64,000 nt of DNA, taken from NCBI GenBank assembly GCA_000993405.1, contig LBWB01000009.1:13848-77847 (forward strand), written 5' to 3'. Of the stretch, positions 339 through 62,726 are shown one piece after another. Position 1 is the stretch's first letter, and the number at the start of each line of letters is the position of its first letter. The position numbers and the translations under genes are program-made. Source of the DNA: Candidatus Woesebacteria bacterium GW2011_GWB1_39_12. GTDB lineage: Bacteria > Patescibacteriota > Microgenomatia > UBA8517. The notes below the pieces were generated by a model, which was not told where the DNA came from, searched no databases, and saw only the letters and a program-made list of their open reading frames with translations.

Positions 339-466
339 ATAAATTAAACTCTAAATTCTAAGCACAAAATTCGAAACAATATCTAATGTCAAATTTTCAA
401 AATTCAAAAAAGTTTTAATATTGGAACTTTGAGTTTTGAATTTGTTTAGAATTTAGGATTTCGGAT

Positions 467-1117
467 TTAGGATTTCTTTTCTAACACTACCACCTTCATC
501 TCTTCTCCTAATTCATTTTTCTTTATACTTAATTTTTCCAATCTTTCCACAGGTAAGCTGACTTCCCTCAGAAAATCATCAACAGTTGCTAATTCTCCGA
601 AGACCTCCTGATTAATCCCGGAAATTTTATAGTGCATAGGAATCGTAATTCTGGGTTCAATGTCTCGAACAACTTCTCCTGCTTCGCTTGGGCCAATAGT
701 ATATATTCCTCCTACAGGAATCATAAGAACATCAACCTCTCCCAACTCTCCAAGCACATCTTCAGTCAGTCTATGACCCAAATCTCCCAAATGGACAAGC
801 CTCAAATCGTCCATCTCGATAACATAAATTGTATTTTTTCCTCGCTCAACACCCTTTTTTGAGTCATGGTAGGTCCCAAAACCAATTATAGATACACCCG
901 AAATCTCATATTCACCCGGTCCATCAATAACTTTTTTTACATCTGATACCGCTTGAACAAAACCATGGTCATCGTGCGCGTGAGAAACCGTAACTAAATC
1001 CGCCGATATTTTAGGAAACTTTAATCCTACCTTTTTCGAATCAAACGGGTCGGATACAAGACTTAAAGACTTACCCCTAAGTTTGAAAGATGAGTGTCCA
1101 AGATAAGTAATATCCAT
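467..1117 (-). CDS. MBL-fold metal-dependent hydrolase (UPF0173-like)
   Basis: 216 aa; HAHDDH metal-binding motif and overall beta-lactamase-fold signature. Confidence 0.75.
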   Translation of the reverse strand: MDITYLGHSSFKLRGKSLSLVSDPFDSKKVGLKFPKISADLVTVSHAHDDHGFVQAVSDVKKVIDGPGEYEISGVSIIGFGTYHDSKKGVERGKNTIYVIEMDDLRLVHLGDLGHRLTEDVLGELGEVDVLMIPVGGIYTIGPSEAGEVVRDIEPRITIPMHYKISGINQEVFGELATVDDFLREVSLPVERLEKLSIKKNELGEEMKVVVLEKKS

Positions 1118-32308: not shown

Positions 32309-32680
32309 TTATGGAGCCTCCTTCCAGCTTGTTATAGATACTGTTGACGTTCGAGAGGCCGTTACCCTTATCTTTTTAGTATACCCTTCATTTGCAGCCT
32401 CTACAGTAAAGTCCCAATTATCACCTACCTGCGAACTCGTAACCGTACATGTTTTACCGGCAATAGTTATTGAACCGGGAATAAAATTTTCTTCATTCAG
32501 TCTTAACAGTGCGTCTTCTACACACGCTTCGACCAAGTTTAACGTTTCTTCGTTTCGCATCGCGGCAAATGAAGACTGCAGATCGTTTATCGATAAGGCA
32601 GATACCGAAATTCCGATAAGAATTACAAGTGCCGTGACAACAATCAAGCTGGTTAGGGCGATATATCCTTTTTGGTTCAT
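32309..32680 (-). CDS. PilX-like minor pilin
   Basis: MNQKGYIALTSLIVVTALVILIGISVSAL resembles the PilX N-terminal domain. Confidence 0.55.
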   Translation of the reverse strand: MNQKGYIALTSLIVVTALVILIGISVSALSINDLQSSFAAMRNEETLNLVEACVEDALLRLNEENFIPGSITIAGKTCTVTSSQVGDNWDFTVEAANEGYTKKIRVTASRTSTVSITSWKEAP

Positions 32681-32689
32681 ACAATTATT

Positions 32690-32715
32690 GTCATCCTGAA
32701 TTTATTTCAGGATCT
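32690..32715. repeat. Palindromic element GTCATCCTGAAtttaTTTCAGGATCT immediately upstream of the PilX-like gene start (second copy at 62732)
   Basis: 8-bp perfect inverted repeat ATCCTGAA/TTCAGGAT; 24/26 nt identical to 62732-62757. Confidence 0.6.
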
Positions 32716-32768
32716 AAGATTTCGAAACTAGTTCGGAATGACTATTCCATAGTCCATTGTCCACTTTT

Positions 32769-33290
32769 TCACTGTGATCGTAATTCAACCGATGTTTCAT
32801 AAGTTTCACTTTTCTGAAACTCCTGTCTGTCACCTGTTGCTTCAATAGTTATCGAAAACCTGACGTTGGTTGAGCCGGCAGTAGAAAAGTCGGTAAAATT
32901 TAAGGCTGTAACAGTTACTTTGTTGCTTGTCAAAAAATACTGGTTACCCCCATATCCGATCCTCAGGCGTCCGCTCGAAACATCTCTATCTATAACAGTT
33001 GGATTTCGACCAGCATCGGTTGACGCCAAAGAAATTGATGATGCCGAGACAGAATTAACTCCCGAAGCATTTCTGATCTCATACATTATTATTTTTACGG
33101 CGAGTCTCATGTTTTGGTTAACTTCCTGATGCACCTGCGATCTGACTCTTCCGTAAACTATATCCGAAGTAAAATAAATTACTCCGGTCATAAACATCGT
33201 CACAATGGCGATATATAAAATAAGCTCAACCAAAGTAAAGCCTCTTGAGAATTTGGAATTTGGAACTTGGAATTTGGAATTATTCATCAT
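32769..33290 (-). CDS. Prepilin-type minor pilin (start ATG overlaps the upstream stop as ATGA)
   Basis: Leader MMNNSKFQVPNSKFSRG|FTLVELILYIAIV; ORF track extends to a TTG at 33302. Confidence 0.75.
   Translation of the reverse strand: MMNNSKFQVPNSKFSRGFTLVELILYIAIVTMFMTGVIYFTSDIVYGRVRSQVHQEVNQNMRLAVKIIMYEIRNASGVNSVSASSISLASTDAGRNPTVIDRDVSSGRLRIGYGGNQYFLTSNKVTVTALNFTDFSTAGSTNVRFSITIEATGDRQEFQKSETYETSVELRSQ
33248..33280. repeat. Heptanucleotide tandem repeat (GAATTTG)x4.7 inside the prepilin leader coding region
   Basis: gaatttg gaatttg gaacttg gaatttg gaatt; period 7 is not a multiple of 3. Confidence 0.8.
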
Positions 33291-35125
33291 GGATTTCTCC
33301 AATAACCAAAATAAAATGGACTGGTAGTGCTTTGGACTAGATTAGCTTCCAAAGTCGTTCCATCTGCATACGTCGGATTGGTCCAAGTAAATACACCGGC
33401 GCTGTCCATTTCGAGCCGTTTGGCAAATAAATCATTCACAGAGTTAGATACAAGAAACATCAATTTATCTTTATTTTTTGGATCTGTCTGGATGTCGTAC
33501 CATCTCGGAGTTCCAAACAACGGAGTTGGCGTAAACCAAGGAGTACTATCAGTTCCCTGCCTGACAAAGGTGCTGCCATTCCATACAAATCCATGAATTC
33601 TTTGTGATTGAGTACTACTATTATCAAAAACCACAATTCCACGGGTAGTAGCACCATTAATCAACCATCCGGTTGCTACAAAACTTGCACCAGCTACAGG
33701 AGTCAGGGCAGAAGTATCAAGATCATTTGTTCCCGTCCAAGCCGAACCAGACCAGCGTGCGGCTTGCAAATCGCTTCCTCCATCGCCAATTGATGCAAAT
33801 AGAATTTCGTCAGAGTTTGGATTTGATGAGATATCAAGTGACGTTGCATCATTTGCCATACTTGTAATTGCCGTTCTACTTGCATTCCACGTACATGAAG
33901 GGGGGGATCCACCGTCGCACTTGTTATACCACGCACCATTTGCCGTACCAGATCCTCCAGATCCCCAAACGACCATCAAATGCCCAGATAATGACTCAAA
34001 ATCAATATCGAAACTATCTCCATTTGGAATAGTGGGAGAAGAAGTACAATTTCCTCTACATTCAAGTGTAGTCTCCAGAGCAGACGTCCTTTGAGTCCAA
34101 GAAGAACCGCTCCAAATAGCTGCTTGCAGATCTCTATTCATATCAGCCCAGGCTGCAGCTATGACATCTGAACTAGCTCGGCTGTCTGCTGATAACTTTA
34201 CCCACGTCACCACTCCGTTTGTTCCCGGAGAGTCAAAAGCCGTCTGATCTACCCAATTGGCGCTCCCGCACCCTAAAGAACCAGATTTAGTTTGATAGTC
34301 AAGCTCGCCAGTACCAGCATCTGTAGAATAAAGCACTATCGCATCCCCCGACTGATATTCATAGGCTATATCAAATCTTCTGGTAGTACCGGTTCCCCCG
34401 ACTGTCACACTCCACTCATTCGTCCAGGTTGTTCCGTCAAAGCATAAAATCCGTAAAGTGCTAGAATCAACATAAGCAGCGATTGCTTCCTGTTTTGTCG
34501 GCGAAGTCTTGATAACAAAGTTTCTTCCAGGTGCACCAGCCACCGTATCGCTGTTTGCACTAAATGTATTACTGGCATTGCTATAAACGTTAAATCGCGG
34601 AATGGAACTTCCTGTTCGACCATACACCAAAAGTGCGTCTCCGGCTGAAGAAATTGCTTTTCTGAAATTAGTTAAATATGTCGCAAGAGTAATACTTCTT
34701 GCTCGGACGTCGGAAAAATCCCAGTCAACTGTGGCGTCAATTTTTTTAGCGTCAGGGTCAGGAGTCCCACCTGAGGCCACAATATTTCCGCCCACATCTC
34801 TTTGCACGTCAGAAATTACAATAGTTCTTAAAAACTTTCCAACATTATCTGGTCCTGCATCAAAACTCCAGACGTTTCCGGTCGTGTCTAAACCATATGT
34901 ACCCGCGGTTAAATTCCCCCACGACTGATTTTTAATCGACCTAACTCCTTCGATTCCCTCTTGGGCAATAAGTGTAGCCTGTGTTTCTTCCTCGGCTTGT
35001 CTATTAACCGAAAAGCTGTGTATTACAGTCGCAACTCCTGTCGCCGCTATGATTATAAACATAAAAACGGCGAGTATCACTTCGACTACTGAAAACCCTT
35101 TTTTAACAGTTTTTCTTTTAAACAT
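33287..35125 (-). CDS. Large pilin-like protein (prepilin N-terminus; putative pilus tip/adhesin), GC-rich
   Basis: MFKRKTVKKG|FSVVEVILAVFMFIIIAA; 612 aa Gly/Thr/Ser/Trp-rich; local GC ~55-58% versus ~40% surroundings. Confidence 0.65.
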   Translation of the reverse strand: MFKRKTVKKGFSVVEVILAVFMFIIIAATGVATVIHSFSVNRQAEEETQATLIAQEGIEGVRSIKNQSWGNLTAGTYGLDTTGNVWSFDAGPDNVGKFLRTIVISDVQRDVGGNIVASGGTPDPDAKKIDATVDWDFSDVRARSITLATYLTNFRKAISSAGDALLVYGRTGSSIPRFNVYSNASNTFSANSDTVAGAPGRNFVIKTSPTKQEAIAAYVDSSTLRILCFDGTTWTNEWSVTVGGTGTTRRFDIAYEYQSGDAIVLYSTDAGTGELDYQTKSGSLGCGSANWVDQTAFDSPGTNGVVTWVKLSADSRASSDVIAAAWADMNRDLQAAIWSGSSWTQRTSALETTLECRGNCTSSPTIPNGDSFDIDFESLSGHLMVVWGSGGSGTANGAWYNKCDGGSPPSCTWNASRTAITSMANDATSLDISSNPNSDEILFASIGDGGSDLQAARWSGSAWTGTNDLDTSALTPVAGASFVATGWLINGATTRGIVVFDNSSTQSQRIHGFVWNGSTFVRQGTDSTPWFTPTPLFGTPRWYDIQTDPKNKDKLMFLVSNSVNDLFAKRLEMDSAGVFTWTNPTYADGTTLEANLVQSTTSPFYFGYWRNP

Positions 35126-35134
35126 AGTCCACGA

Positions 35135-36028
35135 TTAATTTATATCCAATCCCCCTGCTGCATTTAAACCAACTGTAGTAGATCCCAAATCGTTACTTAT
35201 GGTGATATTTAAAACACTTGAAGGCTCTCCCCTCTGACCCGAAGTACCCGAAAAAGTTGTCTCGCTTAGTCCCGATACACTGACACCAGTCAAGTCGTAA
35301 TCTTCACTGTAAGTAGGACTTGCACACGAACCGCTGAATAAACGTAAATTAGCCCCGCTCATGCAAACTCCCCAAGTAGTGTTGCCTTTACCATCCATTG
35401 CATAGCTTTGGGCCTTACGAATTGCGCTTATTACTTTATCGCTTCCTACCTCCAAATTGTTTGTAATAAGAAGCCGCGTTAAAGAAGGGCCGGCTGAAGC
35501 AGCTAGAATGGCAACTATCGCGATTACCAAAAGAAGCTCGATTAGGGTAAAAGCCGCTGATAAACTCCGATGAGAACGCAGATTAACGCTTTTATTTATT
35601 AGTGTTTTTCTCTGTTCTCGAGAATACTTACTTCTTACAGTGTCATATACTCTACGAATAATATCCAATTTTTCCTCTCCAAAGTTAATCAAGAAGCCCA
35701 ACTTGTAAGGAGTACCTCTCAGATAGTTCCAAAATTGTTTCTTATCTGATGCTGTTATAAAGGGTTTAGATTTCAGCTCAATTATTATCCTTTCATTTAC
35801 GACAAAATCGGGGGTATATATTCCAACCGTGACATTCTTATATGCAACTGTGATTCTTTTCTGGGTTTCAACTTGTAACTTACGATCCTCTAATTCTTTT
35901 TTCAAAGCTCGTTCTACTATCTTTTCTTTATGAACACCAGCAAAGGCTTTCCATACTTCAAAACATGCTCCTCTTATAGAATATGATTCTTGTTCATATA
36001 AAAAATTATCGACTCTTTTTTTTGGCAT
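35135..36028 (-). CDS. Fusion protein: N-terminal GxxExxY (PD-(D/E)XK-like) domain + C-terminal prepilin-type pilin
   Basis: Residues 1-~140 match the GxxExxY family (LYEQESYSIRGACFEVWKAFAGVHKEKIVERAL...GFLINFGEEKLDIIRRV); residues ~155-297 are a pilin (SAAFTLIELLLVIAIVAILAA...). Confidence 0.55.
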   Translation of the reverse strand: MPKKRVDNFLYEQESYSIRGACFEVWKAFAGVHKEKIVERALKKELEDRKLQVETQKRITVAYKNVTVGIYTPDFVVNERIIIELKSKPFITASDKKQFWNYLRGTPYKLGFLINFGEEKLDIIRRVYDTVRSKYSREQRKTLINKSVNLRSHRSLSAAFTLIELLLVIAIVAILAASAGPSLTRLLITNNLEVGSDKVISAIRKAQSYAMDGKGNTTWGVCMSGANLRLFSGSCASPTYSEDYDLTGVSVSGLSETTFSGTSGQRGEPSSVLNITISNDLGSTTVGLNAAGGLDIN

Positions 36029-36099: not shown

Positions 36100-37173
36100 T
36101 TATCTGCGAATTGACCCAGTCAATTGGTAGATCGGTGAGATTATCGACAAAGCCACAAACCCCACAACTAACCCTATCACAATAAGGAGAGCCGGCTCTA
36201 AAATAGTGGATAGATTGCGACTTATGTCATCGACTTCGTCTTCAAAAAAATCTCCCAAATATAAGAGCGTTTCGTCGAGTTTTCCTGTTTTTTCACCAAC
36301 AGAAATCATTCTTCCTACAAGTGGTGGAAATTCTGAGTAACCTTTACGCATTGACTCCCCGATGTTTTTTCCCTTTGTTAAAGACTTTGAAAGAGTTAAA
36401 ACGTCACCTCTAAAACGCAGGTTTGAAAGAGTATTTGCCGTTACTTCAAGACTTTTTGTTATCGGAACTCCGCTTGTTATAAGGGTTCCAAGATTTCGGG
36501 TAAAACGTGCGAGTTGGCCGTATGCAATAAGTTTTCCCATTACCGGAGTTTTCAGTAGGGCGGCATGCCAGAGCGGTTTAACTTTAGGAAGCTGTGATAC
36601 TATTCGAAAGAGTACAACAAAAATGACGATTCCTACAGCAATTAGCGACCCATAATTTTTCATCATCTCCGCAAAAAAGATCAGAATTCTTGTGGTTAAA
36701 GGAAGTTCAATATCAAACGACTTAAAAAAATCAACAAGTTGTGGAAGTATATAAAACGAAATAAAACTTCCCATTATTACTGTTGCGAAAAGTACTATTG
36801 CCGGATAAGTCATCGCGCCTTGAACTTTCTTTCGGAGTGAATAGTCTTTACCAAGTTGTTTTGCCAAAAAATCAAGGTTCTCCCCCAAAGTACCCGAACT
36901 CTCCCCGACTTCAATAAGACTTACGTAAAACTGGTCAAACACTTTAGGGTGTTTTCTAAAAGAATCAGCCAAGTTTTTACCGTTTTTGACGTCTTCCAAA
37001 ACTTGAGCGAGAACTTTCCTGAAGTATGCATTTTTACTCTGATCAACCAAAGTCTCCAAGGCCTCGGTAATTGATATTCCGGCCTTCATCATTGTAGCCA
37101 GATGCTTGGTAAATAAAAGCCGCTCCTGAATGCCCACTCTTTTCAAAAATGTAACTTGGGTAGTAAATATCAT
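36100..37173 (-). CDS. pilC: Type IV pilus assembly platform protein PilC (GspF family)
   Basis: T2SSF domain repeats, 3 TM helices. Confidence 0.85.
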   Translation of the reverse strand: MIFTTQVTFLKRVGIQERLLFTKHLATMMKAGISITEALETLVDQSKNAYFRKVLAQVLEDVKNGKNLADSFRKHPKVFDQFYVSLIEVGESSGTLGENLDFLAKQLGKDYSLRKKVQGAMTYPAIVLFATVIMGSFISFYILPQLVDFFKSFDIELPLTTRILIFFAEMMKNYGSLIAVGIVIFVVLFRIVSQLPKVKPLWHAALLKTPVMGKLIAYGQLARFTRNLGTLITSGVPITKSLEVTANTLSNLRFRGDVLTLSKSLTKGKNIGESMRKGYSEFPPLVGRMISVGEKTGKLDETLLYLGDFFEDEVDDISRNLSTILEPALLIVIGLVVGFVALSIISPIYQLTGSIRR

Positions 37174-37242
37174 ATGTTTATACTCGACACGAATTTAAAT
37201 ATTCGCATAATTCGCATGAATTCGTATATTAGCATCGCTTAT

Positions 37243-38919
37243 TTATTCTTTCGTCACCCTAATTATCTCATCAATGGTTGTTATGCCTTGTTTTACCTTT
37301 CCGATGCCATCCTCCAACATGGTTGTCATTCCATTTTTAACTGCAATTTTTTTAATTTCAGATGACTCTTTTTTGGCAACAATTGCAGTCTTCATTTCGT
37401 CGTCGACTAAAAGTACCTCAAAAATTCCCACGCGACCAACGTAGCCTGTCCCGTGGCACAAATCACAACCCTTACCCTTATATACTCTCAGATTTTTTTC
37501 ATTTGGAAAATACTTTTGCATAATACTTTCCGAAATTTCGTTAATTAAAATGCCGCTAACTTCTTCTGAAACGCGACACTTAAGGCAAATTTTTCTTACC
37601 AAACGCTGGGCAATTACCACATTAACGGTCGTTGCAATAAGAAAAGGTTCAACCCCAAAATCAAGAAGTCTCGGGAAGGCTGTTGCAGCGTCGTTCGTGT
37701 GCAGGGTCGATAAAACCAAGTGTCCTGTCATAGCGGCGTTTATAGAAATGTCTGCGGTTTCTTCGTCACGAATCTCCCCGACCAGAATTATATCGGGGTC
37801 TTGCCTAACTATGGACTTCAAGCCTGCCGCAAAAGTTAAGTTCGTATTCGGATTTACCTGAATTTGATTAACCCCTTCCATGTCGTATTCAACAGGATCT
37901 TCTATTGTCATTATATTCACATTCCTTTTGTTCAAGAGTTTCAAAACCGCATAAAGGGTCGTGGTTTTACCGCTTCCGGTGGGCCCTGTTGACAAAATCA
38001 TCCCGTGAGGCTTGTTGTAAGCGCTTACGACCTTTTTCAGATCGCTTTCGGAAAAACCAAGATCCTGAAGTGAAAATTGGCGACTTCTCTCGGATAAAAG
38101 CCGCATGACAACTTTTTCACCGTTAGTCACTGGAACAATGGAGATCCTGATATCCAAGTTTTCCTCGGCGAGCTCGACACTTATCTTCCCGTCCTGGGCT
38201 GATTGATGTTCGTCTGTTCTTAAGCGGGCCATAACTTTTACCCTGGTCACTATCTGCGGATGTATCACGGAAGGCAAATTTATAATGTCGTGAAGCATTC
38301 CGTCTATTCTGAAACGTACGGTCGAACCGTCATCCGTTGGCTCAATATGAATATCAGATGAGCGGTTTTGGTAAGCATAGGTGATAATTGTATCTACGAT
38401 TTTAATAATTGAAGGTTCGGCAACCTTGGTACCCTTAGCCTCTTTGACACTTTCCGCAATAATTTCATCAAAGACTTTTGCAATATCTTTTGCATAAAGA
38501 TTGAGGGCATCCTTTATACTTCTTTTGGATGCATAATAGGTTTTTACCGGAATCCCGATCTTCTTGCCTATAAAATCCGGCACTTGTTTGTCAGATGGGT
38601 CATTTAAAACAATGTGCAGTCCTTCCTTATCTCTCTTAAATGCAACGACCATCTGCTTTTTTGCATAAACCTCCGGAATTGTATTTAATACACCCTCATC
38701 TATTGCCGTTTCGGAAAGATTAACAAAAGGATAATTAATAAGATCCGCAATAATCTTGCCGATATTAGTGTCTGAAATTAAATCCTTTTGGACAAGTAAT
38801 TCTTCTAAAGAGATTTTTTTAAGACTCGCTTCCTCAAAGGATTCCTTTAATTTGTCCAAGGGAATGACGTCCAATTCTTTTAAAGTATCAAAAAGTTCCT
38901 GCTCGCTAAAAAGCCTCAT
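37243..38919 (-). CDS. pilB: Type IV pilus assembly ATPase PilB (GspE family)
   Basis: Walker A GPTGSGKTTT, Asp/His boxes, C-terminal CxxC...CxxC zinc site. Confidence 0.9.
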   Translation of the reverse strand: MRLFSEQELFDTLKELDVIPLDKLKESFEEASLKKISLEELLVQKDLISDTNIGKIIADLINYPFVNLSETAIDEGVLNTIPEVYAKKQMVVAFKRDKEGLHIVLNDPSDKQVPDFIGKKIGIPVKTYYASKRSIKDALNLYAKDIAKVFDEIIAESVKEAKGTKVAEPSIIKIVDTIITYAYQNRSSDIHIEPTDDGSTVRFRIDGMLHDIINLPSVIHPQIVTRVKVMARLRTDEHQSAQDGKISVELAEENLDIRISIVPVTNGEKVVMRLLSERSRQFSLQDLGFSESDLKKVVSAYNKPHGMILSTGPTGSGKTTTLYAVLKLLNKRNVNIMTIEDPVEYDMEGVNQIQVNPNTNLTFAAGLKSIVRQDPDIILVGEIRDEETADISINAAMTGHLVLSTLHTNDAATAFPRLLDFGVEPFLIATTVNVVIAQRLVRKICLKCRVSEEVSGILINEISESIMQKYFPNEKNLRVYKGKGCDLCHGTGYVGRVGIFEVLLVDDEMKTAIVAKKESSEIKKIAVKNGMTTMLEDGIGKVKQGITTIDEIIRVTKE

Positions 38920-41624: not shown

Positions 41625-42317
41625 TTAATATTCTTCTACTACTCTGGGTCTATCTATATACAGGAGGGTTTTACTATTTACGATTTCAATAACCTCGTCC
41701 ACTGTTGCAAAAACATTTTTTAATTTTCTATATTCTTTCTCACTCATCCAAATGTTTCTACCTTCAGGAACAAGCTTCTTTAATTTTCCTTTAACATTAT
41801 CCACCCTATAAACCCAGAAGTATTTATCCTCCAAAAGTCTACCGTCTTTATGGAAATGGTGGTAATGGATAATTCCTTTCAATTCGAATTTTCCTGTCAA
41901 ACCGGTTTCTTCAAGAAACTCTCTCTTGGCACAATCTTGTGGATTTTCTCCCCATCTTATTTTTCCGCTATGGCTGCCGTACCAGCCGTAAAAAGGTTCT
42001 TTCAATCTTTGGTGCACAAGATACTCTGTAATTCCTTTATGTTCTCTTACTGCATGAAGAGCAACGGCCAGTTTTGCTTGCCTTTCGAGTTTCAAAGCAT
42101 CGGTGTCCATTCTATTAGCAAACTCCTTGCCGTCATCCGTAAGAGAATACCTTCCGTTTGTTTTTACCACTAAACCTTCTTTTAATAAGTGTTTAAGGTG
42201 GAAAGTAAAATGGTCGTTTGTTATGTCAACCTTTTTGAGGTCTCTAAATCTTGCGTTGGGTTTAAAAAGAAGTTCCCGTAAAATTGAAATTTGAAATTCG
42301 TGAATTTTGATTTCCAT
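41625..42317 (-). CDS. NUDIX hydrolase with N-terminal winged-helix DNA-binding domain
   Basis: HTH-like N-terminus; Nudix box GKIRWGENPQDCAKREFLEETGL. Confidence 0.65.
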   Translation of the reverse strand: MEIKIHEFQISILRELLFKPNARFRDLKKVDITNDHFTFHLKHLLKEGLVVKTNGRYSLTDDGKEFANRMDTDALKLERQAKLAVALHAVREHKGITEYLVHQRLKEPFYGWYGSHSGKIRWGENPQDCAKREFLEETGLTGKFELKGIIHYHHFHKDGRLLEDKYFWVYRVDNVKGKLKKLVPEGRNIWMSEKEYRKLKNVFATVDEVIEIVNSKTLLYIDRPRVVEEY

Positions 42318-56959: not shown

Positions 56960-58594
56960 CTAACTCCCAAATATCTCTTTGGCCACCTTAATTATATCCT
57001 CATCTTCTCCTTCAGTCAAAACCGCGTCGGAAGCGGCTGGGGCCGAGTGAGACGCGGCTGGGGCCGAGTCCGACTCGGTCAAAACGACATTTGATTCATT
57101 GTTAGATTGAACTCCTCCAATAATCTTTCCGTCCTTTGGACGAAAAGGGGGTTCTGTTAATGTACAAACAATCCTAACCCTATTACCAAGAACTCCCTCT
57201 ACGACTTCCTCAAGTATATCTCTGTGGGGATTTGCCTCGAGTCTCTCTTTATGAAATCTATAATAAACGCCCAACGTTAAAACGCTTCCGTCTAAACCCA
57301 ATGGCCTTGCCGCCCTAAGAAGTGCCTCTGTTGAAGAATTTTTTGGCTTAATTTGGGTTAATATTTGTCCCCAAGTCTCATCACTAAAACCATTGACATG
57401 AACACTTTCTGAATTTGTATGCTTAGAAACACCAACTTTTGTATGTTCTTTCTTAGTTCTACCAATTTCCGTCACCTCTGTCTTATTTTCGTCATCGAGA
57501 AAATCGTTATTGTTGTCATCTTTGATATTTGATTTTTCATTTTTAATATTTACTTCTCCCCACTCTACAACCACAAGTTCTAGTGGAATCTGCTCCAAAT
57601 AAGAATCCGATATATCGCTATATGCCTGCGAGAATAGTTTAATTAAACGAACGATTTCTTCCTTATTAAAATACTTTAGATCTTCACCTTCTATGCCTAT
57701 TTTATTCATTAAAGCACTCCGTAATCTTGTAATAATCTGTTCTGTAATATTTTTTAGTGATATCCCTAAACTAGCAGCGGATTCGATTGCTAAAAGATTT
57801 TTCTTAACGTCTTTTTTTGATAAAACCAGGAGGAATTCTTCAACATCAAATGCTTTTTTATTGAAAAGGTAGTCTTCAATTTCTTTTCTTTCCAATTTTT
57901 GGACCTCTATTACCACAGTTTCCAAAAGTTTGGTAGCATCTCGAAAAGAGCCGTCCGAGTACTTCGCAATTAGTTCAAGGACTTCCTTCCCGGTCTTTAT
58001 TTTTTCCTCTCTGGAAACTCTTTCCAACGACCTTACAACTTCGACTAAATTCGCCTTCTTAAAAATTACATTTGTACACCTCGACCGAATAGTTTCTATC
58101 AACTTTTCAGGATTTGTGGTTGCCAAAATAAACATAACGTGCTCTGGAGGTTCTTCCAAAGTTTTAAGAAGTGCGTTCGAGGCTTCAGTTGTCAACATGT
58201 GTGCCTCATCAATGATATAAACTTTTTTTCTGGAGTTGGCGGGTGCAAGTTTGACGGCATCTCTTAAAGTTCTTACATCGTCGATTCCCCTGTGAGACGC
58301 AGCATCAAGTTCGATTACGTCTACATTCGTTCCTTTTGATATGGAAATACACTGCCCACACTGATTACATGGCTCAAATTTCCCTGGTCCTCGAAGTGCT
58401 GGCGTTGTGGACTCACAATTTACTATCTTGGCCAAAATCCTGGCCGCAGAAGTCTTTCCAATTCCTTTTGGGCCCGAAAAAAGAAAGGCGTGTGGAATAT
58501 TTCCTGACGAAACAATCTTTTTTAAAGTTTCTCGCGCACCTTCAGAATCCAGCTCGTCTAGAGTTTGGGGGCGGTATTTTAGATATAATGTCAT
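56960..58594 (-). CDS. dnaX: DNA polymerase III subunit gamma/tau
   Basis: AAA+ motifs (FSGPKGIGKTSAARI, DEAHML); contains an in-frame 21-nt tandem duplication at 57033-57069. Confidence 0.9.
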   Translation of the reverse strand: MTLYLKYRPQTLDELDSEGARETLKKIVSSGNIPHAFLFSGPKGIGKTSAARILAKIVNCESTTPALRGPGKFEPCNQCGQCISISKGTNVDVIELDAASHRGIDDVRTLRDAVKLAPANSRKKVYIIDEAHMLTTEASNALLKTLEEPPEHVMFILATTNPEKLIETIRSRCTNVIFKKANLVEVVRSLERVSREEKIKTGKEVLELIAKYSDGSFRDATKLLETVVIEVQKLERKEIEDYLFNKKAFDVEEFLLVLSKKDVKKNLLAIESAASLGISLKNITEQIITRLRSALMNKIGIEGEDLKYFNKEEIVRLIKLFSQAYSDISDSYLEQIPLELVVVEWGEVNIKNEKSNIKDDNNNDFLDDENKTEVTEIGRTKKEHTKVGVSKHTNSESVHVNGFSDETWGQILTQIKPKNSSTEALLRAARPLGLDGSVLTLGVYYRFHKERLEANPHRDILEEVVEGVLGNRVRIVCTLTEPPFRPKDGKIIGGVQSNNESNVVLTESDSAPAASHSAPAASDAVLTEGEDEDIIKVAKEIFGS

Positions 58595-58597
58595 TCG

Positions 58598-58678
58598 TTA
58601 GTGAATAGTGAATAGTGGATAGTGAATAGTGGATTTCTAATTCTGTATTACCAACCACCAATCACTAATCACCAAACA
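58598..58678. repeat. Two heptanucleotide arrays in inverted orientation filling the ybeY-dnaX intergenic region
   Basis: Left: AGTGAAT AGTGAAT AGTGGAT AGTGAAT AGTGGAT. Right: CACCAAT CACTAAT CACCAAA CACTAAT (approximate reverse complement). 16-nt spacer. Confidence 0.7.
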
Positions 58679-59065
58679 CTAATTATGGTGCTTTCCCATC
58701 AAATGTAGCGCACCGTGCTCGACTAATTCAAGTACCTTTTCGTCTATCAGCTTACCCTCGCTTTCTGCTTCCTTGACGACTTTGGGGTAACAAATGACAA
58801 TGTCTCCCAAGTGAATAGTCTCATCTGGCGGCTCGATAAAAGCCTGGTCACCTTCGAGGTAAGGGAATGTCAAAACGTCATGAACCTCTCTTTCCCTTAA
58901 ATACTTTATGGCAAGATTAAGCATATGTTTTTGGCTAACAAAACTAACGCTTACATCTGCCTTCGAAACAATTCCCTCCTTTGTCAAAACTTCCTTCAAA
59001 ATTTTTTTGACTTTTGGAGCACTAACCGGGCAGTTTGTAAGTTTTTTGACATAAACCTGTATCAT
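58679..59065 (-). CDS. ybeY: rRNA maturation endoribonuclease YbeY
   Basis: HGALHLMGKHH zinc-binding motif. Confidence 0.85.
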   Translation of the reverse strand: MIQVYVKKLTNCPVSAPKVKKILKEVLTKEGIVSKADVSVSFVSQKHMLNLAIKYLREREVHDVLTFPYLEGDQAFIEPPDETIHLGDIVICYPKVVKEAESEGKLIDEKVLELVEHGALHLMGKHHN

Positions 59066-60293: not shown

Positions 60294-60373
60294 AGTTCTT
60301 TCTCCTTTCTCCTTTTATCCTTCACCCTTTACCTTTAATTAAATATACCAATTTGTGAAAATTCTTACAAGAC

Positions 60374-61445: not shown

Positions 61446-62726
61446 CTACAGACGAGATTTTGTAATAGCTTCTATCACTTGATCGATTGTGAGAAGCTCG
61501 GTTTTTTCGGAAGCCCTGCTTTTCCACTCAATTTTATCTTTAGTTTTTTCTGAAGTTACCAATCTCACAGGAATACCTATAAGATCCGCATCTGCGAACT
61601 TCTCTCCGGCTCCAACATTTCTATCATCCCACAGAGCTTCAATACCCGAATCCTCTAATTTCTGGTAAATCTCCTTTGCTCTTTGGCCTTTGTCGTTTGT
61701 CCTGATGTCCAATAAATGGACATCAAAAGGAGCAATGGTCTTATTCCATATTATTCCCCGCTCATCATGGCTAACCTCAACCCATGTACCCATTACCCTT
61801 GTTGAGCCAATGCCGTAAGAACCAAACCAGACAGGTTTTCTCATTCCCTTTTCATCGGTATAGTAAACCCTCATTCTCTCAGAATAATATGTTCCGAAAG
61901 GGAAAATATTACCTACTTCAATCGATTTGGATTGCCTGATCGAACCTTTCTTACAAACCGGGCACGTAATTACCCCTCCGGGCCCGAGGCCCTCCGGGCC
62001 GGGGGCTTTAAAAATTTCTTGATTTTGTGCAAAGTCGCATTTTTCGCAATAGTAAATTGTGTCTTCTCCTCCTTCTGCTAAAACTTGGAACTCATGAGTA
62101 TTATTGTCCGTAAATACGCCCCCTGCTGCCTCTGTAATTTTGAAATCAAAACCTAATCGCTTAAATACCCGGCAGTAAGCTTTCTTTACTTCCTCGTAAT
62201 ATTTCCAAAAATCCTCTTCTCCCGCGTGAATAGAATATAAATCCTTCATCATAAATTCCCGTCCCCTTAAGATTCCAGACCGAGCTCTTGGCTCATTCCT
62301 GAACTTCGTTGAAAAATGATAAAGTGCCAAAGGCAAATCCTGATAGCTTGTTATGTGTTTTCTTACCAAATCCAAAACTATTTCCTCATGAGTGAAACCT
62401 AGTCCCAAGTCCTTATTCCGACTGTCTTTAAGTTGATACATTATTTCGCGAGCGGTGTCCCATCTTCCGGTTTCTTGCCAAACTTCTTTGGGATGCATCA
62501 AAGGCATTAATATCTCCTGAGCTCCGGTTGAATTCATCTCTTCTCTTATAATTTGATTTATTTTATTAACCACTCGCCATCCCATTGGAAGAAGAGTCCA
62601 GCTCCCGGCCATCAGTTGATCGATAAATCCTGCGCGGACCAGAAGTTTATGATTAATGCTTTCCGCGTCTTTAGGAGCTTCTTTTTTTGTTTTTGGAAAA
62701 AGTGACGATTGTCTCATAAGCGTCAT
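61446..62726 (-). CDS. proS: Proline--tRNA ligase (bacterial type lacking the editing insertion)
   Basis: Class II motifs, zinc-binding CPVCKKG; 426 aa; GC-rich low-complexity insert at 61982-62015. Confidence 0.9.
   Translation of the reverse strand: MTLMRQSSLFPKTKKEAPKDAESINHKLLVRAGFIDQLMAGSWTLLPMGWRVVNKINQIIREEMNSTGAQEILMPLMHPKEVWQETGRWDTAREIMYQLKDSRNKDLGLGFTHEEIVLDLVRKHITSYQDLPLALYHFSTKFRNEPRARSGILRGREFMMKDLYSIHAGEEDFWKYYEEVKKAYCRVFKRLGFDFKITEAAGGVFTDNNTHEFQVLAEGGEDTIYYCEKCDFAQNQEIFKAPGPEGLGPGGVITCPVCKKGSIRQSKSIEVGNIFPFGTYYSERMRVYYTDEKGMRKPVWFGSYGIGSTRVMGTWVEVSHDERGIIWNKTIAPFDVHLLDIRTNDKGQRAKEIYQKLEDSGIEALWDDRNVGAGEKFADADLIGIPVRLVTSEKTKDKIEWKSRASEKTELLTIDQVIEAITKSRL

Follow-up and report, generated by a model that had tools for sequence, protein, structure and literature searches.

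The 64,000-nucleotide (nt) stretch analyzed here, below called the window, belongs to contig LBWB01000009.1 (positions 13,848 to 77,847) of Candidatus Woesebacteria bacterium GW2011_GWB1_39_12 and has ~39% guanine plus cytosine (GC). It includes a minus-strand type IV pilus cluster, in which the gene for a 173-residue minor pilin begins with a tandem heptanucleotide array that is translated as part of the prepilin leader. This array, which had been proposed from the sequence as a candidate phase-variation switch, is the subject of the present analysis. The features at the 5' end of the gene are the following.

32769..33290, minus strand: minor pilin gene, 173 residues; Pfam N_methyl, and a sub-threshold, weak likeness to ComGF, HpsC and PpdC-type minor pilins
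33240..33290, minus strand: prepilin leader, 51 nt, followed by Phe at +1 and Glu at +5 (from the translation, the Pfam N_methyl match and the gap-free alignment of eight alleles)
33249..33281, minus strand: heptanucleotide array, nucleotides 10-42 of the coding sequence of the 173-residue prepilin, leader codons 4-14
33287..33290, minus strand: ATGA overlap, the minor pilin start codon over the TGA stop of a 612-residue gene
33297..33300, minus strand: Shine-Dalgarno sequence GGAG, 6 nt 5' of the pilin ATG, within the tail of the 612-residue gene (...YWRNP, then stop)

The heptanucleotide array in the prepilin leader

The 173-residue protein is 100% identical to a Candidatus Woesebacteria GW2011_GWB1_39_12 protein and matches Pfam N_methyl with 25.1 bits, against a cut-off of 21.2. 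On the sense strand, the gene starts with ATG ATG AAT, continues with the units AATTCCA AATTCCA AGTTCCA AATTCCA AATTC(TC), followed by AAGAGGC, and is translated into MMNNSKFQVPNSKFSRG, then FTLVE. This leader of 17 residues, with a net charge of +3 and a Gly at its end, fits a class III signal peptide, which is required to be hydrophilic, ~6-26 residues long and to end with Gly-1 (PMC4471445). The residues after the cleavage site, FTLVELILYIAIVTMFMTGVIYF, comprise the hydrophobic stretch (~21 residues) and the Glu at +5 that type IV pilins require.

Tandem Repeats Finder places the array at 33249..33281, with period 7, 4.7 copies, 92% matches, a score of 59 and, on the plus strand, the unit GAATTTG. 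The array is imperfect, with an A>G substitution in one unit and a diverged last unit, and the longest perfect stretch is 17 nt (~2.4 units). None of 100 dinucleotide-preserving shuffles of the window contains a period-7 array with a score of at least 59, and a search with a 21-mer of the unit, tolerating at most 3 mismatches, yields 3 overlapping matches in the window against 0.02 expected. In simulations, gain or loss of one or two units leads to stops after 16-34 residues, and gain or loss of three units preserves the frame. The sequence-only reading had described a heptanucleotide repeat of 4.7 copies in a minor pilin leader, a start codon overlapping the stop of the 612-residue gene, and a shift of frame upon unit change, and these observations are borne out, with the qualification that changes by three units are neutral for the frame.

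The same reading held that the pilin gene and the 612-residue gene are translationally coupled. The ATGA overlap is also found in orthologs (loci L013, L136, L015 and L080), and the ...YWRNP tail and the motif TGGAGRAAYCC around the Shine-Dalgarno sequence are conserved in the leader alignment of alleles. The recurrence, in several orthologs, of the overlap together with an embedded Shine-Dalgarno sequence (TGGAGAAAYCC-ATGA) suggests coupling rather than demonstrating it. A 172-residue homolog (P0104) that could be taken for a 3-nt start variant is identical at the DNA level, the gene caller having taken the second ATG.

Period-7 arrays in alleles, orthologs and the window

The comparison draws on 100 homologs of the 173-residue pilin, nearly all from Microgenomates/Candidate Phyla Radiation (CPR) metagenomes, and on locus DNA fetched for 140 loci. 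Leaders are the most variable part of the homologous proteins, and several of them read as translated heptads. In eight alleles, the mature products of which are 63-100% identical, the leader is a gap-free 51 nt consisting of ATG, 6 nt, five heptads and 7 nt. The heptad itself varies: AATTCCA in the window, AATTCAA in L137, AACTTAA in L013, L143 and L139, AAATTTA in L140, AAGTCAA in L136, and AAGTTAA in L015. Unit identity is 0.72 within alleles vs 0.57 between alleles at the same position, and 0 of 5000 permutations reach the observed value. Given that units are alike within each allele at a fixed leader length, the arrays evolve in concert at constant length.

The leaders of more distant orthologs contain arrays of other units, such as ATCCCAC x4.4 (L017), AGTCAAA (L023 and L042), a perfect AAATTTC x4.7 (L051) and ATTTCTC x5.1 (L077), and many orthologs have short plain leaders such as MKKG. 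The median leader length is 17 codons with an array vs 12 codons without one. An in-frame start is absent in only one of 96 distinct ortholog loci, and the other array-bearing pilin leaders examined (~25) are all in frame.

Altogether, 38 unique arrays were found in 99 distinct ortholog loci (276 kb): the leader zone has 14 of these, the region just 3' of the stop codon 16 and other places 8, and the mature pilin coding sequence is free of them. By inspection, those located 3' of the stop codon, as well as several of those in other places, encode the leaders of the next pilin genes, and all are in frame. Thus, the leader of the next pilin is read from heptads as MKNFNWKLEIGNWKFRRQADG, then YVALSS, in L024 and as MENSKLKTKSSKLDKG, then YVALSS, in L017, and that of a third pilin in L018 as VNRIKNKESRIKG, then FTLIELLV. 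In these operons, therefore, at least three pilin families have leaders built from heptad arrays.

GC-rich short palindromes (such as CCGTCAGCTGACGG and CCGCCGGCAGGCGG) are present in frame beside or inside pilin-leader heptad arrays in L080, L024, L031, L090 and L018; the first of these loci resembles the L051 array broken by one such palindrome.

Period-7 arrays are not confined to pilin leaders but form a genome-wide class. The window contains six of them with at least 4 copies vs 0.01 expected from shuffles, and other periods are not enriched. In addition to the pilin-leader array, these are the following.

445..475, minus strand: array AAATCCT/AAATTCT x4.4, spanning the stop codon of a metallo-beta-lactamase-fold gene
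57521..57551, minus strand: TATCAAA-like array x4.4, in frame in the dnaX linker between AAA+ and DnaX_C
58599..58634 and 58650..58683, minus strand: two arrays between ybeY and dnaX, TTRGTGA x4.9 followed in the mRNA by ATYCACT x4.7
61672..61703, minus strand: a weaker period-7 array (72% matches) in the proS inter-domain region

Among these, only the unit at 445-475 resembles that of the pilin leader. In the ybeY-dnaX spacer, the second array ends 5 nt 5' of the dnaX ATG, at which no obvious Shine-Dalgarno sequence is seen, and the two arrays are roughly reverse-complementary, so that a long imperfect hairpin is possible. Speculatively, a one-unit slip in the array of the dnaX linker would yield a truncated, gamma-like product. 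Two shorter repeats, each of which could be due to chance, are CAAATTT x2.7 in codons 7-13 of a NUDIX-domain gene (42280..42298) and CTTTCTC x2.6 (also of period 14), which ends 5 nt 5' of the start of a HIT-family gene (60298..60335).

In related CPR loci (347 kb), period 7 accounts for 47 of the 66 arrays with at least 4 copies, and the copy number is bimodal, a peak at 4-5 copies standing apart from a chance class of 2-2.5 copies. The median length of period-7 arrays is 32 nt (interquartile range 30-35). The units differ from one array to another (AAATTCC, TATCAAA, ATTCACT, TTRGTGA, AAATCCT and others), with no single dispersed heptamer, and are mostly A-rich and G-poor on the sense strand. 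The arrays occupy spacers, inter-domain linkers and cleaved leaders or run across stop codons.

Among strains, the copy number of the pilin-leader tract is the same in all 11 near-identical contigs, which, at 99.9-100% identity over 3.5 kb, are in essence a single clonal population of one aquifer. The 90% protein cluster of the pilin, drawn from ~15 billion sequences, has five members, one of which is a truncated call. This call comes from L011, a strain 99% identical over 2.9 kb, in which the leader is 74 nt long and consists of ATGAAGAAA, three L136-type units, AT, five window-type units and AAGAGGC. At this length, the ATG is out of frame, and the gene caller began inside FTLVE. L011 is the single out-of-frame allele among 96 distinct loci, ~17 of which bear arrays. 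The change in L011 is a 23-nt out-of-register mosaic that arose by recombination rather than by a unit slip. At the junction, which reads CGTCAAAT, then AATTCC, the parental types share only ~4 nt, which makes a chimera of k-mer (de Bruijn) assembly unlikely.

A degenerate heptad array, AGTGGAC AATGGAC TATGGA (32746..32765, minus strand), lies just 3' of the pilin stop, and here L012 and L013 have exactly one heptad more than the window, indicating that unit-wise change does occur in the lineage. Compared with the window at 32681..33300, L012 has a mature gene that is 98% identical, an unrelated leader and a different end of the upstream gene, and L013 has a pilin that is only 87% identical, yet its downstream spacer is exactly as in L012. 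Both strains are mosaics, with the leader and the stop as likely sites of recombination breakpoints.

Origin and role of the array

We consider it probable, although well short of certain, that the pilin-leader tract is a slippage-born heptanucleotide array of the class typical of this lineage, tolerated in a dispensable leader, where it represents a rare potential frameshift site. Under this scenario, an over-represented class of arrays of ~32 nt, with free unit sequence, would settle at gene boundaries or in linkers, and in type IV pilus operons, such arrays would have become part of the leader (n-region) of class III signal peptides. The creation of an array and the homogeneity of its units would be due to slipped-strand mispairing or intra-array conversion. 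Tolerance and co-option of the array as a leader can be understood from the minimal requirements on the n-region, which is cleaved off (PMC4471445): prepilin peptidase would remove any leader that is short, hydrophilic, positively charged and has a Gly at its end. The other presumed reason is that A-rich, stop-free heptads suit every frame, the three frames giving peptides rich in K, N, S and Q that could serve as a leader. Selection would then keep the pilin-leader array in frame at five units. A change by one or two units in either direction would abolish the pilin, which makes the tract a potential frameshift site, presumably with a low rate of switching.

Heptameric simple sequence repeats (SSRs) are over-represented in bacteria, with polymerase slippage as the tentative cause (PMC4692102). 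The arrays described here are similar to the cyanobacterial STRR, the GGGAATC repeats of Xanthomonas and the GGGGA(T/C)T repeats of Nostoc in the enrichment of period 7 and in the variation of length and sequence between close relatives (PMC4692102). STRR-type arrays are mostly intergenic, and those of the present class likewise reside mainly outside constrained coding sequence. However, each of the known families has one conserved unit per genome, often G-rich and capable of forming G-quadruplexes (G4), whereas the units of the class found in the window vary, are A-rich and G-poor, span a narrow range of sizes (~32 nt) and reach into coding leaders.

Several observations weigh against this explanation. 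The range of 4-5 units and the homogenization at constant length are unlike simple neutral slippage and are suggestive of an active process or of selection acting on the array as such; the homogenization could also be the trace of repeated cycles of loss and gain (OFF/ON). The presence of leader arrays in three pilin families resembles, by analogy, the clustering of contingency loci in genes for surface structures. The L011 gene, intact in other respects, is naturally out of frame, and, because the near-identical contigs are essentially clonal, their uniform copy number is a poor guide to minority variants. Tolerated slippage leaves unexplained why period 7 is preferred, why the size is ~32 nt and why the units are homogenized.

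The foremost alternative is a contingency locus, in which the array would slip at an appreciable rate, reversibly switching the minor pilin on and off and altering the tip complex of the pilus, in the manner of neuO. We regard this as unlikely, although it deserves to be taken seriously. The tract is an in-frame repeat with a unit length not divisible by 3, it lies in the 5' coding sequence, where gain or loss of one or two units results in early stops, its units are homogenized within alleles, and such arrays occupy leaders of at least three pilin families. Furthermore, the neighboring intergenic array differs between strains by exactly one heptad, and the out-of-frame L011 allele would be brought back into frame by one extra unit. 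That L011 is the sole truncated-call variant of the allele in the 90% protein cluster, and came about by out-of-register recombination (23 nt), speaks against slippage by units, as do the uniformity of the tract, with five units in 8/8 alleles, and the preserved frame of the ~25 other array-bearing pilin leaders. The longest perfect stretch of the tract is only 2.4 units, and proven heptanucleotide switches are usually far longer and visibly polymorphic.

The sequence-only reading singled out the repeat as a phase-variation candidate, to be checked by comparing copy number among strains and by asking whether the leader repeat is conserved at the protein level in relatives. Neither comparison favors a special switch: copy number does not differ among the 11 near-identical contigs or the eight divergent alleles, all of the latter with a 17-codon leader, and relatives preserve an architecture of 2 x 7 residues (x-S/V/L-K-hydrophobic...). 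The essential genes dnaX and proS, where switching would kill, contain arrays of like kind and size, as does intergenic DNA; hence, the presence of such a tract is no evidence of a switch.

A heptanucleotide repeat in the 5' coding sequence is already known in kind, with neuO of Escherichia coli K1 (prophage CUS-3) as the closest mechanistic analog, where this mechanism is proven workable (PMC13001214). In neuO, 5'-AAGACTC-3' units number 3-53, with 20 being the commonest count, and the gene is OFF in 65.6% of genomes (PMC13001214). The two systems share a stop-free heptanucleotide repeat just after the start codon, translatable in all three frames, with the number of units determining whether the full-length protein is made, but the units of neuO are perfect and variable within and between strains, whereas the pilin has five imperfect units, a number that eight alleles share, and the peptide they encode is cleaved off. 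The heptanucleotide SSRs of Haemophilus influenzae, located in the hmw1A/hmw2A promoters and in genes for TonB-dependent receptors, are comparable in their association with surface proteins and their status as phase-variation candidates, the hmw tracts having 13-38 copies and shorter tracts being treated as candidates as well (PMC2651432). Unlike the pilin array, the H. influenzae SSRs typically comprise 8-38 perfect copies, vary clearly between strains and, in many cases, are located in promoters.

In Neisseria, pilC is phase-varied through a poly-G tract in the region coding for the signal peptide, and high-frequency switching is documented. As in the Woesebacteria pilin, a simple repeat occupies the part of a pilus-associated gene that codes for the signal or leader, and a frameshift abolishes the protein although the mature part is intact; the differences are that pilC has a mononucleotide tract and belongs to a host-adapted pathogen, and that its signal peptide is of the Sec type rather than of class III.

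A broader alternative takes the arrays as a whole: set-size heptad arrays (4-5 units, ~32 nt, free unit sequence) would constitute an actively homogenized class in Microgenomates that builds several families of pilin leaders and acts either as contingency switches operated by slippage or recombination, or as a periodic cis-element for an unknown factor. This possibility appears rather improbable; if true, no simple-repeat phasome would have been described in the CPR before it.

It is quite doubtful, too, that the tract is primarily a cis-acting RNA element, with leader coding being secondary, in which an A-rich, G-poor stretch would keep the initiation region unstructured or bind S1, Csp or CsrA. 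The array folds more weakly than shuffled sequences (z = +1.06 as RNA and z = +1.75 as DNA, in the latter case with 199/200 shuffles folding at least as well), so it is possible that it keeps the initiation region unstructured; the same result leads us to reject a hairpin in which UCCAA repeats hide the Shine-Dalgarno sequence UUGGAG. Arrays adjoin starts, 5 nt upstream in the case of dnaX, 9 nt downstream in the case of the pilin and likewise in many orthologs, but others reside in coding linkers far from any start. Several array-bearing starts are devoid of a Shine-Dalgarno sequence (L042, L051 and L116), and yet arrays and the absence of this sequence are not associated (5/11 vs 23/77, p = 0.32), so that arrays do not appear to substitute for it. 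Concerted evolution and the fixed length of ~32 nt suggest selection on periodicity, whereas the differences in unit sequence between arrays fit no single sequence-specific binder. Scans of the tract for promoters, terminators and Rfam families found none, and no Rfam family matches the array.

A parallel for a cis-acting role comes from TAACTGA heptamers, direct repeats of marine Beggiatoaceae, Cyanobacteria and Bacteroidetes with a possibly translational function (PMC4679880). Similarly to the arrays considered here, these are present in 2-6 heptamer copies a few nt from start codons, some within open reading frames (ORFs), and also beside essential genes. They differ in having one fixed, stop-containing heptamer, in being located mostly upstream of the start rather than translated, and in belonging to another lineage. 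A programmed -1 frameshift heptamer (X XXY YYZ) was also considered, but the unit of the window, A AAT TCC, departs from this scheme, and only the unit of L051, AAATTTC, fits.

A function at the protein level is very improbable. According to this possibility, a duplicated motif of 7 residues, with Lys and hydrophobic residues in alternation, would be needed for prepilin peptidase or membrane targeting, the DNA periodicity being a by-product. The leader length of 17 residues and the K-hydrophobic pattern are indeed kept in the eight alleles. Nevertheless, selection for a 7-residue repeat predicts a 21-nt rather than a 7-nt periodicity, the three frames of the heptad give unrelated residues, the leaders of most orthologs are short and plain, as in MKKG, and P0102, with a mature protein 97% identical, works with an unrelated leader of 11 residues. 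The unrelated leader of P0102 and the inability of protein-level selection to create a 7-nt periodicity are the main arguments here. Finally, a chance low-complexity match or an assembly artifact, for which nothing speaks beyond the AT-richness of the genome, is practically excluded by the lack of comparable arrays in 100 shuffles and by the same sequence in independent JGI, ENA, NCBI and Logan assemblies.

In CPR bacteria, attachment to hosts and the uptake of DNA are thought to depend on type IV pili. Should a repeat-driven switch of a minor pilin turn out to be true, organisms with tiny genomes would gain a population-level way to vary their surface; in our literature search, neither heptad arrays nor phase variation by simple repeats turned up for CPR bacteria. 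Even under simple tolerance of the tract, the prepilin leaders in this lineage would be assembled from microsatellite arrays and be the fastest-changing part of the gene, frameshifted CPR pilins such as that of L011 would not necessarily be annotation errors, and period-7 arrays of characteristic size at gene boundaries would be a lineage-wide feature. This lineage-wide pattern, with arrays forming pilin leaders, is a more interesting lead than the single tract.

The surrounding type IV pilus cluster

Besides the gene of the 173-residue pilin, the minus-strand cluster encompasses a T2SSE ATPase, a T2SSF protein and three more pilin-like genes, a setting with assembly machinery that is in keeping with a type IV pilin. 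A 359-residue LytR_C protein and a 188-residue pilin are also members. The genes with mapped positions are the following.

37243..38919, minus strand: T2SSE ATPase
36100..37173, minus strand: T2SSF platform protein
35135..36028, minus strand: GxxExxY-pilin fusion, an ORF of 297 residues
33287..35125, minus strand: 612-residue pilin-like gene (MFKRKTVKKG, FSVVE...), with a weak ComGE-like N-terminal match and no Pfam match
32309..32680, minus strand: 123-residue PilX-like gene

No peptidase A24 gene was detected among the scanned ORFs, to which the search was restricted.

The ORF at 35135..36028 joins a GxxExxY / PD-(D/E)XK (PDDEXK_3) domain, in the same frame, to the N-terminal methylation domain of a pilin, with no Met between the domains and with Ala at -1. 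In L018, a GxxExxY-like tail continues in frame into the ortholog of the 173-residue pilin, and in L023, a putative four-helix-bundle sequence (of the 23S rRNA intervening sequence, or IVS, type, judged by eye) runs in frame into the pilin ortholog. Pilin genes seem to have hot spots of insertion at their 5' ends.

The pilB-pilC spacer contains a 9-nt repeat, ATTCGCATA x3 (37201..37228), and its ATTCGCA-type motif is translated in a long upstream extension of the L018 pilin ortholog. In one 96-kb assembly (L003, ~45), a change of a homopolymer from A7 to A6 splits the counterpart of the 612-residue gene into two ORFs, which may reflect either a genuine variant or an error of assembly. The truncation of the upstream gene in L141 is only apparent, being caused by a scaffold gap of Ns. 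In the 123-residue PilX-like gene, one population (L008/L014, ~1225) has a 21-nt in-frame deletion, corresponding to 7 residues, between CGAA direct repeats.

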